From the NCBI RefSeq assembly GCF_022846255.1, contig NZ_AP025682.1: a stretch of DNA of 64,000 bases, one strand, 5' to 3'. The notes under the pieces are model-generated. The model saw only the letters and a program-made list of their open reading frames with translations, made no database searches and was not told the origin of the DNA. The DNA comes from Escherichia coli. Its GTDB lineage: Bacteria; Pseudomonadota; Gammaproteobacteria; Enterobacterales; Enterobacteriaceae. Shown one piece after another: positions 7,913-29,528 of the stretch. A program made the position numbers and the translations under genes. The stretch's first letter is position 1. Each line of letters opens with the position of its first letter.

Positions 7913-9556
7913 ATGTTGAAGCGCCTACTAAAAAGACCCTCTTTGAATTTACTCGCCTGGCTATTGTTAGCCGCTTTTTATATCTCTATCTGCCTGAATA
8001 TTGCCTTTTTTAAACAGGTGTTGCAGGCGCTGCCGCTGGACTCGCTGCATAACGTACTGGTTTTCTTGTCGATGCCGGTCGTCGCCTTCAGCGTGATTAA
8101 TATTGTCCTGACACTAAGCTCTTTCTTGTGGCTTAATCGACCGCTGGCCTGCCTGTTTATTCTGGTTGGCGCGGCTGCACAATATTTCATAATGACTTAC
8201 GGCATCGTCATCGACCGCTCGATGATTGCCAATATTATTGATACCACTCCGGCAGAAAGTTATGCGTTGATGACGCCGCAAATGTTATTAACGCTGGGAT
8301 TCAGCGGCGTGCTTGCTGCGCTGATTGCCTGCTGGATTAAAATCAAACCAGCCACCTCGCGCCTGCGCAGTGTTCTTTTCCGTGGAGCCAATATTCTGGT
8401 TTCTGTACTGCTGATTTTGCTGGTCGCCGCACTGTTTTATAAAGACTACGCCTCGTTGTTTCGCAATAACAAAGAGCTGGTGAAATCCTTAAGCCCCTCT
8501 AACAGCATTGTTGCCAGCTGGTCATGGTACTCCCATCAGCGACTGGCAAATCTGCCGCTGGTGCGAATTGGTGAAGACGCGCACCGCAACCCGTTAATGC
8601 AGAACGAAAAACGTAAAAATTTGACCATCCTGATTGTCGGCGAAACCTCGCGGGCGGAGAACTTCTCCCTCAACGGCTACCCGCGTGAAACTAACCCGCG
8701 GCTGGCAAAAGATAACGTGGTCTATTTTCCTAATACCGCATCTTGCGGCACGGCAACGGCAGTTTCAGTACCGTGCATGTTCTCGGATATGCCGCGTGAG
8801 CACTACAAAGAAGAGCTGGCACAGCACCAGGAAGGCGTGCTGGATATCATTCAGCGAGCGGGCATCAACGTGCTGTGGAATGACAACGATGGCGGCTGTA
8901 AAGGCGTTTGCGATCGCGTACCTCACCAGAACGTCACCGCGCTGAACCTGCCTGGTCAGTGCATCAACGGCGAGTGCTATGATGAAGTACTGTTCCACGG
9001 GCTGGAAGATTACATCAATAACCTGCAGGGTGATGGCGTGATTGTCTTACACACCATCGGCAGCCACGGCCCGACCTATTACAACCGCTATCCGCCGCAG
9101 TTCAGGAAATTTACCCCAACCTGCGACACTAACGAGATCCAGACCTGTACCCAAGAGCAACTGGTGAACACTTACGACAACACGCTGGTTTACGTCGACT
9201 ATATTGTTGATAAAGCGATTAATCTGCTGAAAGAACATCAGGATAAATTTACCACCAGCCTGGTTTATCTTTCTGACCACGGTGAATCGTTAGGTGAAAA
9301 TGGCATCTATCTGCACGGTCTGCCTTATGCCATCGCCCCGGATAGCCAAAAACAGGTGCCGATGCTGCTGTGGCTGTCGGAGGATTATCAAAAACGGTAT
9401 CAGGTTGACCAGAACTGCCTGCAAAAACAGGCGCAAACGCAACACTATTCACAAGACAATTTATTCTCAACCTTATTGGGCCTGACTGGCGTTGAGACGA
9501 AGTATTACCAGGCTGCGGATGATATTCTGCAAACTTGCAGGAGAGTGAGTGAATGA
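7913..9556 (+). CDS. eptA: lipid A phosphoethanolamine transferase
   Basis: ORF track 7868..9556 trimmed to the internal ATG giving 547 aa ([10 protein letters not shown]...); sulfatase-type C-terminal domain; stop overlaps the basR start. Confidence 0.88.
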
Positions 9557-27894: not shown

Positions 27895-28653
27895 ATGAGC
27901 CTGACCCTCACGCTCACCGGCACCGGCTGCGCACAGGGCGTTCCGGCATGGGGCTGCGAGTGCGTAGCCTGCGCCAGAGCGCGGCGCTCACCGCAGTATC
28001 GCCGCCAGCCGTGCAGCGGCGTAGTGAAGTTTAACGAGGCGATCACCCTGATCGACGCCGGGCTGCACGATCTCGCCGATCGCTGGTCGCCCGGATCGTT
28101 CCAGCAGTTTTTACTGACGCACTACCATATGGATCACGTCCAGGGGCTGTTTCCGCTGCGCTGGGGCGTGGGCAATCAGATCCCGGTCTACGGTCCACCG
28201 GATGAGCAGGGCTGCGACGATCTGTTTAAACATCCGGGCCTGCTTGATTTCAGCCACACGGTGGAGCCGTTTGTGGTGTTTGATTTGCAGGGGTTGCAGG
28301 TCACGCCGCTGCCGCTTAACCATTCGAAACTCACTTTCGGCTATTTACTGGAAACGGCGCACAGCCGGGTGGCGTGGCTATCTGACACCGCAGGCCTGCC
28401 GGAAAAAACGCTGAAATTTTTACGCAATAATCAGCCGCAGGTAATGGTGATTGATTGCAGCCACCCGCCGCGCGAGGATGCACCGCGTAATCACTGTGAT
28501 TTAAATACCGTGCTGGCGCTGAATGAGGTTATCCGCTCGCCGCGCGTGATTCTGACCCATATCAGCCACCGGTTTGATGCGTGGCTGATGGAAAACGCGC
28601 TACCATCGGGGTTTGAGGCGGGGTTTGATGGGATGGAGATTGAGGTGGCGTGA
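27895..28653 (+). CDS. phnP: metallo-beta-lactamase-fold phosphodiesterase
   Basis: ORF track 27847..28653 trimmed to ATG 27895 (252 aa, [11 protein letters not shown]...); HYHMDH motif. Confidence 0.85.
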
Positions 28654-28680
28654 GGGAAAATACCCGCGCCGGCCCCTATA

Positions 28681-29010
28681 TCAACGCCCATACTCATCTT
28701 CCATTCTCCGCTCTTCATCTTCCAGTTGCCGACGCTCCTGATCAAGCTGGCGCTGGCGATCGTCCAGCTGCCTGCGGCGATCTTCAAACTGGCGGCGGCG
28801 GTCATCATATTGTCTGCGCCGATCGTCGCTCACTTCACGCTGCCAGCCGTCGTCGCGCGAATCTTCATAGTCTCGCCCACGGTCAGGGTTATAAGCGTCG
28901 TTAATCGCCTGCTGAATATTGCCAATGGTGTCGTCGATAATATCGGCCTGGGCCGGAACGGTGGACAGCGTGAGCAGGGTGAATAAAAGAAATAGCGGAA
29001 AGCGTTTCAT
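28681..29010 (-). CDS. yjdP: secreted protein YjdP with charged heptad-like repeats
   Basis: ORF track 109 aa; signal peptide then reiterated RRRQxDD-type units. Confidence 0.8.
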   Translation of the reverse strand: MKRFPLFLLFTLLTLSTVPAQADIIDDTIGNIQQAINDAYNPDRGRDYEDSRDDGWQREVSDDRRRQYDDRRRQFEDRRRQLDDRQRQLDQERRQLEDEERRMEDEYGR

Positions 29011-29078
29011 TAGCCAACCTCAAAAAGAAACTCTATCCACATTAGTCATTACTCATCCATGCAAGTAGTGGATGAATC

Positions 29079-29528
29079 TCAATTTCTCCGCTGCTCTATT
29101 GCCGTAATCGCCTCCACGCGTTGTTGATGACGACCGCCTTCGTACTGTGCGCCCAGCCACGCATCGACAATCATTTTTGCCAGTTCGAGGCCAACCACTC
29201 GTGAACCAAAAGCCAGCACGTTGGTATCGTTATGCTGCCGCGAAAGTTGCGCGGAATAAGGTTCGCTACAAACGACCGCGCGAATTCCGGCAAACTTGTT
29301 CGCCGCTATCGAAATACCGACGCCAGTGCCACAAATCAAAATCCCGCCATCAGCCTCTCCGCCAGCAACGGCCAGTGCGACTTGACTGGCGTAATGCGGA
29401 TAATCAGTACGCTCTGACGACCAGGTTCCTTTATCAATCACTTCAACGCCACGCTCAACTAAATGTGCCACTATTTCATGTTTTAAAATGAAACCGACAT
29501 GATCACAGCCAAATGCAATCTTTTTCAT
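29079..29528 (-). CDS. rpiB: ribose-5-phosphate isomerase B / allose-6-phosphate isomerase
   Basis: ORF track 149 aa; RpiB/LacAB family. Confidence 0.9.
   Translation of the reverse strand: MKKIAFGCDHVGFILKHEIVAHLVERGVEVIDKGTWSSERTDYPHYASQVALAVAGGEADGGILICGTGVGISIAANKFAGIRAVVCSEPYSAQLSRQHNDTNVLAFGSRVVGLELAKMIVDAWLGAQYEGGRHQQRVEAITAIEQRRN

Follow-up and report, generated by a model that had tools for sequence, protein, structure and literature searches.

The window analysed here is a stretch of 64,000 nucleotides from Escherichia coli (contig NZ_AP025682.1 of assembly GCF_022846255.1), in which the yjdP coding sequence occupies positions 28681..29010 on the minus strand, with an ATG start and 109 codons followed by a stop codon at 28681-28683. 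The translated protein of 109 amino acids (MKRFPLFLLFTLLTLSTVPAQADIIDDTIGNIQQAINDAYNPDRGRDYEDSRDDGWQREVSDDRRRQYDDRRRQFEDRRRQLDDRQRQLDQERRQLEDEERRMEDEYGR) begins with MKRFPLFLLFTLLTLSTVPAQA and continues as DIIDD...SDD RRRQYDD RRRQFED RRRQLDD RQRQLDQ ERRQLED EERRMED EYGR, and its RRRQxDD-like heptad units are exactly those that the initial annotation had described for this region. The identification as yjdP, made in that annotation from the letters of the sequence, was borne out by the 100% DNA identity to the gene of E. coli Nissle 1917, by the single RefSeq protein accession that the window protein shares with K-12 YjdP, and by a match to the family model NF041443 (see below). Of 5426 complete E. 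coli genomes, 5404 contain a match, annotated as 'DDRRRQL repeat protein YjdP'. The window gene differs from that of K-12 at four nucleotides, each a synonymous change at a third codon position in the yjdP frame, and the minus-strand frame is therefore the coding one. Two open reading frames that cross the repeat in antisense (28726..28986 and 28650..28904, both on the plus strand) were rejected as genes, since the substitutions and the family conservation track the yjdP frame; they are by-products of the repeat. The convergent arrangement with the last part of the phn operon was also confirmed, as phnP ends at 28653 and leaves a gap of 27 nt to yjdP; a simple terminator scan found no intrinsic terminator between the two genes. 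The gene upstream of yjdP is rpiB, also on the minus strand, with its end at 29079.

YjdP is already known and named, and the window protein is a full member of the family with no difference from it. It matched the NCBIfam model NF041443 (DDRRRQL_YjdP, equivalog) with 147.9 bits against a cut-off of 90 (E = 8.9e-44), residues 1-103 being aligned with positions 1-101 of the 101 in the profile, and Pfam PF28054 'YjdP' is recorded as a precomputed match for all homologues listed, among them sequences with 99-100% identity to the window protein. A search of our local Pfam copy returned no PF28054 match; its sub-threshold matches to DUF7900, Arm-DNA-bind_5 and DUF4140 were of low complexity and were dismissed. 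The NF041443 and PF28054 entries carry no functional annotation. The family name itself describes the heptad repeat, and as the curators have already chosen 'DDRRRQL repeat protein', the observation of the heptads by itself adds nothing new.

The family has few members: in an exhaustive HMMER scan of 1.84 billion representatives, only 54 matched with E <= 0.001, and the weakest of these are unrelated charged-repeat proteins. A scan of one genome per species gave at least 80 yjdP loci. The listed loci belong to Escherichia, Citrobacter, Enterobacter, Klebsiella, Raoultella, Kosakonia, Kluyvera, Leclercia, Lelliottia, Yokenella, Pluralibacter, Atlantibacter, Phytobacter, Pseudocitrobacter, Trabulsiella, Huaxiibacter, Dryocola and Pseudenterobacter, all of them enterobacterial genera, and the remaining ones are labelled 'Enterobacteriaceae bacterium'. 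Among the matches listed, members of the family are thus named from Enterobacteriaceae only, and no Salmonella locus was among them (at least 80 loci). One listed locus stands under the label Chryseobacterium, and this label is probably wrong.

From the sequence and its conservation, residues 1-22 (28945..29010, minus strand) were predicted to form a signal peptide of the Sec type, in which a positively charged n-region (MKR) is followed by a hydrophobic core of 15 residues (FPLFLLFTLLTLSTV) and by PAQA, with A-Q-A directly before the cleavage point. Cleavage by signal peptidase I is predicted after Ala22, the next residue being Asp, and A-x-A followed by Asp or Asn is present in 75 of 77 YjdP orthologues, so that the typical signal peptide noted earlier at this start was upheld by its n- and h-regions and by the A-x-A rule. 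Cys is absent from the whole protein; YjdP therefore has no lipobox (L-[AS]-[GA]-C) and is not a lipoprotein.

The mature protein would consist of 87 amino acids (about 11 kDa, pI 4.6, net charge -8, GRAVY -2.28), of which 55% are charged, with 20 Arg and no Lys; summed over the mature parts of 77 species, the ratio of Arg to Lys is 1439:22. Its N-terminal segment, residues 23-40 (DIIDDTIGNIQQAINDAY; 28891..28944, minus strand), is nearly invariant across genera in the family alignments. The helical hydrophobic moment of this segment is 1.91, compared with 0.74 +/- 0.37 for shuffled sequences (fraction of shuffles reaching the observed value, 0.0016), which points to an amphipathic helix, and AlphaFold2 also modelled it as helical, with low confidence (pLDDT about 57-65). 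The resemblance between this N-terminal motif and an EbhA repeat (E = 0.2) was attributed to chance. The segment is followed by an acidic linker, residues 41-61 (NPDRGRDYEDSRDDGWQREVS; 28828..28890, minus strand), whose length and sequence differ among genera while its richness in D, S, R and Y stays. Residues 44-51 of the linker have a pLDDT below 50 in the AlphaFold2 model, and the linker is probably disordered.

The rest of the mature protein is largely made of six heptads, residues 62-103 (DDRRRQY DDRRRQF EDRRRQL DDRQRQL DQERRQL EDEERRM; 28702..28827, minus strand). The 21-nt periodicity of the DNA, which had been proposed by inspection, was confirmed. Tandem Repeats Finder detected an array of period 21 at 28755-28827, with 3.5 copies, 73% matches and no indels. 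At a lag of 21 nt, the identity within nucleotides 160-327 of the gene was 0.578, compared with 0.339 +/- 0.040 for codon-shuffled controls, which preserve the composition, the codon usage and the 3-nt rhythm (z = 6.0; none of 5000 shuffles reached the observed value). This lag was the best among all lags, and none of 2000 shuffles equalled it at any lag that is a multiple of 3. At the protein level, the identity at a lag of 7 within residues 51-109 was 0.52 against 0.16 +/- 0.05, a value reached by none of 10000 shuffles.

Each heptad unit has its own position-specific sequence, which is kept over about 20 genera, with an information content of 3.3-3.9 bits in every one of the seven heptad registers. 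Six hydrophobic positions with a spacing of 7 were found in 73 of 77 species. The values of 5 or 7 obtained in a few species are artefacts that arose in the counting at the array ends. Among 62 unique sequences, the hydrophobic residue of a heptad is invariant or almost so (for example, Y in 60/62, L in 58/62, L in 62/62 and L in 61/62 at four of the positions), indicating a contact seam. The heptad segment contains 70% charged residues, and pairs of opposite charge outnumber those of the same charge by 17:1 at i+3 (z = 3.4 against shuffles) and by 16:1 at i+4 (z = 3.3), a dominance that is the signature of a salt-bridge-stabilised helix.

AlphaFold2, run with an alignment of 24 sequences, placed residues 54-108 in one helix with a block-mean pLDDT of 84-97 over about residues 61-105; for the whole model the confidence was lower (pLDDT 72, pTM 0.36), the high confidence being limited to the heptad helix. 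The six Arg/Asp/Gln heptads are thus predicted with high confidence to form one helix of 45-55 residues, and the 'single long charged helix' of the initial annotation stands in the form of one predicted helix. No relatives of known function were found by sequence or structure in the searches of the local Pfam copy, of PDB profiles and with Foldseek. Nothing significant emerged from the PDB profile search, in which the A-repeats of the streptococcal M6 protein scored best (E = 0.03), and Foldseek returned zero matches for the AlphaFold2 model against the PDB, as is expected for a lone helix.

The initial annotation had also suggested that the number of heptads could vary by slippage, and we compared the gene among strains and species in this respect. 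The longest exact direct repeat in yjdP is 10 nt, and the heptad units use different Arg codons. In 5384 of 5405 records from complete E. coli genomes, at least 80% of the heptad half was covered in one place (more than 99.6% without a length change); no record was below 90% identity, and in all 59 full matches sampled the matched span equalled that of the query. At most 21 of the 5405 records therefore deviate in this half. Among the deviating alleles, one with five units, present in 16 complete genomes and also widespread in draft assemblies, arose by a 21-nt deletion between direct repeats of GATCGCCGC. A second 21-nt deletion (P0025) is independent of it, a separate allele (P0024) is without the C-terminal unit, strain 2024CK-00535 has a 72-nt deletion with a product of 85 amino acids, and an E. 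albertii allele of eight units derives from a 42-nt duplication. Such rare alleles indicate that replication slippage, or recombination between short homologous stretches, takes place, but its products stay rare.

In these respects the heptads do not behave as a slippage-prone coding repeat (73% matches, a longest repeat of 10 nt and no more than 21 deviants in 5405). The suggested variation was retained only for the rare alleles with five or eight units; as a general property of the array it was largely refuted, as the units have diverged and the repeat number is nearly constant in the E. coli records and over the species with six hydrophobic positions. The unit-specific conservation and the count of six over about 20 genera show that the heptads are not a variable repeat driven by slippage, and the array is old and fixed at six units. 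The strong constraint on the number of heptads suggests that the length of the helix probably matters.

The length variation among strains sits instead in a 9-nt repeat of the signal peptide, absent from the initial annotation, and only in lineages whose copies of this unit have become perfect. In the window, two imperfect units, TTCACCCTG CTCACGCTG (FTL LTL; 28966..28983, minus strand), lie in the hydrophobic core. The variable tract is built from the unit TTCACGCTG (Phe-Thr-Leu), with two imperfect copies in the window and in K-12 and three in strain rl0044, whose yjdP also has a premature stop codon. Perfect copies number 5 in JJ1886 (an ST131 strain), 6 in g1-11, 7 in R13 and 12 in AREA_487, and the expansion lengthens the hydrophobic core from 15 to about 24-45 residues. 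Our first genome sample held yjdP genes of 339 and 357 nt, and the alignment places their extra bases in the signal peptide. With its flanks, the 5-copy allele was at least 99% identical to 302 records and 95-99% identical to a further 175, so that about 9% of the complete genomes have an expanded tract. The 9-nt unit qualifies as a slippage-prone repeat only in the JJ1886-type lineage, as opposed to the window with its two imperfect copies. This hypervariable repeat of JJ1886-type strains amounts to a natural experiment on the maximum length of the hydrophobic core of a signal peptide.

Upstream of yjdP, a motif resembling an RcsB box, TGAGATTCATCCAC, was found at 29068..29081 on the minus strand, where it overlaps the rpiB stop codon (29079-29081). 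It fits the RcsB box consensus TN(G/A)GAN4TC(T/C)NA (PMC7913699) at every specified position but the last, which is C and not A, and it is close to the validated box of osmC (TGAGATTTATCCTA) and to the rprA box (TTGAGACGAATCTGA) (PMC7913699). All 77 of 77 species have the motif T-G-[AG]-G-A-N4-T-C-[CT] 70-75 nt ahead of the ATG, and in 54 of them the distance is exactly 72 nt. The block TTGAGAWTCMTCC is invariant in five lineages with differing upstream genes. In most E. coli yjdP is preceded by rpiB; in Citrobacter and O157-like E. coli a gene for a hybrid histidine kinase takes this place, in E. albertii it is yjcS, and in a distant relative it is a divergent gene of the metallo-beta-lactamase fold. 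When 76 unique upstream regions were aligned on the box, the information content was near zero upstream of it, reached a high level across some 18 nt (a.TTGAGAtTcCTCCgCTaC) and increased once more at a conserved TAnnnT 23 nt downstream of the box. In the window the latter corresponds to TAATGT (29039..29044, minus strand), a candidate -10 hexamer. If this hexamer serves as the -10 element, the box would extend from about -49 to -36, which is the usual location of RcsB boxes in activated promoters such as those of osmC and rprA.

No consensus promoter was detected ahead of yjdP in a simple sigma-70 scan, a result that fits an activator-dependent promoter but is not positive evidence for one. 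A ribosome-binding site, GAGG (29018..29021, minus strand), lies 7 nt upstream of the ATG, and its 'gaG' core is kept in the family alignment. Two further candidates were discarded: a copy of the box with one mismatch inside eptA (9379-9391 of the window) was at chance level, and a CpxR site read by eye from GTAAT..TAATG upstream of the gene was rejected because this pattern is not conserved in other genera. The conserved upstream box of RcsB type is the new point of the present analysis.

Published expression data bear on this point. In an RNA-seq study, inhibition of LolCDE raised yjdP mRNA from an FPKM of 10.6 to 100-112 (9.5- and 10.6-fold), together with wca, yjbEFGH, rcsA, osmC and ivy (PMC5105897). 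The authors ascribed the response to the LolCDE inhibitor to Rcs, Cpx and sigma-S together (PMC5105897), and since the inhibitor also induces the Cpx and sigma-S regulons, the induction of yjdP is not specific to Rcs. A CsiR ChIP-seq peak has been located inside yjdP, with 3.5-fold repression on induction of CsiR (PMC5217608). In the E. coli papers that a literature search on yjdP retrieved, the gene otherwise stood only in incidental table entries, and a search for b4487 gave nothing relevant; PMC2731931 makes no mention of yjdP, the supplements of PMC5343319, PMC13098195, PMC12057083 and PMC7888660 contained nothing on it, and the literature search found no rcsB-mutant, RcsB binding or ChIP, or transcription start data for the gene. 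Judged from the box and its conservation, yjdP appears to be an envelope-stress gene under direct control of RcsB. The conserved promoter of RcsB type would link YjdP, present in almost every E. coli, to envelope stress. The Rcs-type envelope stress response is triggered by beta-lactams, polymyxin, lysozyme and inhibitors of lipoprotein trafficking.

Our preferred reading, to which we assign a probability of about 0.62, is that YjdP is an exported protein made from its own RcsB-activated promoter, with a salt-bridged helix of six heptads and with the Leu/Tyr stripe and the N-terminal helix as contact surfaces. RcsB would activate this promoter when bound at the box, whose centre lies about 42 bp ahead of the transcription start predicted near 29032, some 7 nt downstream of TAATGT, and YjdP would therefore be made on perturbation of the outer membrane, of lipoprotein trafficking or of peptidoglycan. 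In the periplasm the helix would be stiffened by a dense network of Asp/Glu-Arg salt bridges at i/i+3 and i/i+4, and self-association or the binding of a partner would probably take place through the invariant Leu/Tyr stripe and the N-terminal amphipathic helix. A further-reaching version is that YjdP is an unrecognised core member of the Rcs system, activated directly by RcsB from a box kept over about 20 genera, that its invariant N-terminal amphipathic helix and its lysine-free heptads bind a specific periplasmic target with a critical length of the helix, and that (FTL)n tunes or abolishes the export in JJ1886-type strains; we consider this conceivable at somewhat less than even odds.

The features of the helix could be explained in other ways. 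It may be an SAH (ER/K-type) domain, that is, a monomeric rigid rod of about 6-7 nm which as a spacer or ruler would position the N-terminal helix in the periplasm. The 70% charge, the enrichment of opposite charges at i+3 and i+4 (z about 3.3-3.4), a helical wheel in which the charges are interleaved (L, R, D, R, D, Q, R) with no separate acidic or basic face, and the uninterrupted helix of the AlphaFold2 model all agree with such a rod. However, a hydrophobic residue at every seventh position (L 62/62, L 61/62, Y 60/62) is unneeded in a pure SAH, and its acidic residues are mainly Asp, which forms helices less readily than the Glu usual in SAH domains. YjdP has the opposite-charge density at i/i+4 and also the conserved Leu/Tyr seam; we hold the rod only tentatively and lean against it. 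Alternatively, the heptads may make up a coiled coil with a half-polar core, formed as a homo-oligomer or by pairing with a partner, in which Leu would take position d and Arg position a, and Arg at g would form ion pairs with Asp/Glu at e as in leucine zippers. The strict period of 7 with Leu/Tyr/Phe/Met conserved at one position is consistent with this arrangement, as is the presence of Arg at g and Asp/Glu at e in the Leu-d register; the sole weak PDB match, the 7-residue A-repeats of the M6 protein, likewise has one hydrophobic residue per heptad, but this match lacks significance and stems from a common periodicity rather than from homology. The hydrophobic a and d positions of a canonical coiled coil or leucine zipper were not found: a hydrophobic residue occupies only one core position of the two, and the Arg or Gln at the other should destabilise a canonical dimer. 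We consider the coiled coil rather unlikely.

Two other explanations depart further from a helix with contact surfaces. YjdP might act without a partner as a hydrophilin-like acidic 'sponge' in the periplasm, buffering cations, cationic antimicrobial peptides or lysozyme, or retaining water under osmotic or desiccation stress. Its GRAVY of -2.28, charge of -8, pI of 4.6 and acidic, probably disordered linker would suit this role, and so would its induction together with Rcs stress genes, including the colanic acid genes and ivy, which encodes a lysozyme inhibitor. But the N-terminal helix and every heptad are conserved position by position more strongly than a bulk role would require, the induced expression is moderate (FPKM about 100), and the glycine content of 4.6% is under the 6% of the hydrophilin criterion; we regard the sponge as improbable. 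Finally, the gene could be a contingency locus in which slipped-strand mispairing alters the number of heptads between strains. The 5-unit alleles in 16 genomes, the second 21-nt deletion, the 8-unit E. albertii allele and the short direct repeats that flank them are what such a locus would produce, whereas units only 73% alike, exact repeats of at most 10 nt, the deviation of no more than 21 among 5405 records, the six units kept over about 20 genera and the location of the truly variable tract in the 9-nt repeat of the signal peptide together render this explanation very improbable.

The preferred reading, of an exported helical protein under RcsB control, can be set beside several known systems. 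Braun's lipoprotein Lpp, a trimeric coiled coil of the periplasm, is likewise short and mostly one heptad-repeat helix, but YjdP has neither a lipobox or Cys nor the C-terminal Lys for attachment to peptidoglycan, and the core of its heptads is largely polar. CpxP, Spy and ZraP (LTXXQ) resemble YjdP in being small, helical, exported (as predicted for YjdP) and induced by envelope stress, whereas YjdP is without LTXXQ motifs, without an LTXXQ Pfam match at E <= 1 and without a match to a PDB fold. With the SAH domains of myosin X, myosin VI and caldesmon, YjdP shares the very high charge density, the opposite-charge network at i/i+4 and, as modelled, a long helix that stands alone, yet its charges are nearly all Arg and Asp, a hydrophobic residue recurs every seven positions, and the protein is bacterial and predicted to be periplasmic. 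The products of the Rcs regulon (osmC, rprA, ivy, osmB, yjbEFGH and ymgD) show no sequence similarity to YjdP, but several of them are small and exported, as YjdP is predicted to be, and yjdP shares with members of this regulon a similar box (osmC and rprA) and the co-induction on inhibition of LolCDE.

The hydrophobic core of the YjdP signal peptide is encoded in part by a 9-nt in-frame repeat, TTCACGCTG (Phe-Thr-Leu; window 28966-28983, minus strand), and the same repeat was found at the same site in other strains (L001:1528-1572, and also in loci L012, L013 and L014). Two imperfect copies are present in the window and in K-12, and strains of the JJ1886-type lineage of E. coli carry 5, 6, 7 or 12 perfect copies; an expanded allele occurs in approximately 9% of complete E. 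coli genomes. In the case of the 12-copy allele, the RefSeq annotation has chosen an internal start codon for yjdP. One 9-nt unit more is also found in the signal peptide of strain rl0044 (L002:1501-1839), where yjdP is a pseudogene owing to a change of codon 46 from CGA to TGA, and a 72-nt in-frame deletion has removed three heptads from yjdP of strain 2024CK-00535 (L005).

The mature YjdP of the window (28684-28944, minus strand) has 20 Arg and no Lys residues, and the Arg:Lys ratio summed over the proteins from 77 species (loci L017-L096, one genome per species) was 1439:22. The preference for Arg over Lys is extreme.

Upstream of yjdP, a conserved RcsB-box-like motif (window 29068-29081, minus strand) overlaps the rpiB stop codon, which is the TGA within its TTGAGA. 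The distance from the motif to the yjdP ATG was unchanged in lineages with other genes in place of rpiB. A one-mismatch copy, TTGATAATCCTCC, inside eptA and upstream of basR (window 9379-9391, minus strand) was at chance level in a shuffle control and was dropped.

A yjdP locus of the usual enterobacterial type, with the motif, is present in the record labelled 'Chryseobacterium sp. 18061' (L024), an assembly that has probably been mislabelled or contaminated. On the phnP side, yjdP and phnP are separated in Citrobacter by the insertion of a higB-like toxin gene with an HTH gene next to it, likely a higBA pair. The spacing between yjdP and phnP is 27 nt in the window (28654-28680) and in JJ1886, as opposed to 146 nt in K-12 (L004:1831-1976), and no terminator-like hairpin was seen in the window gap between the convergent genes; one study (PMC5100583) locates a G-quadruplex/hairpin element, REP-like in kind, in the K-12 gap. 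A hybrid sensor kinase/response regulator gene (L003:1-1416; L015:667-2931), which corresponds to the OI167 island of PMC10128022, takes the place of als-rpiB immediately 5' of yjdP in Citrobacter as well as in O157-like E. coli.
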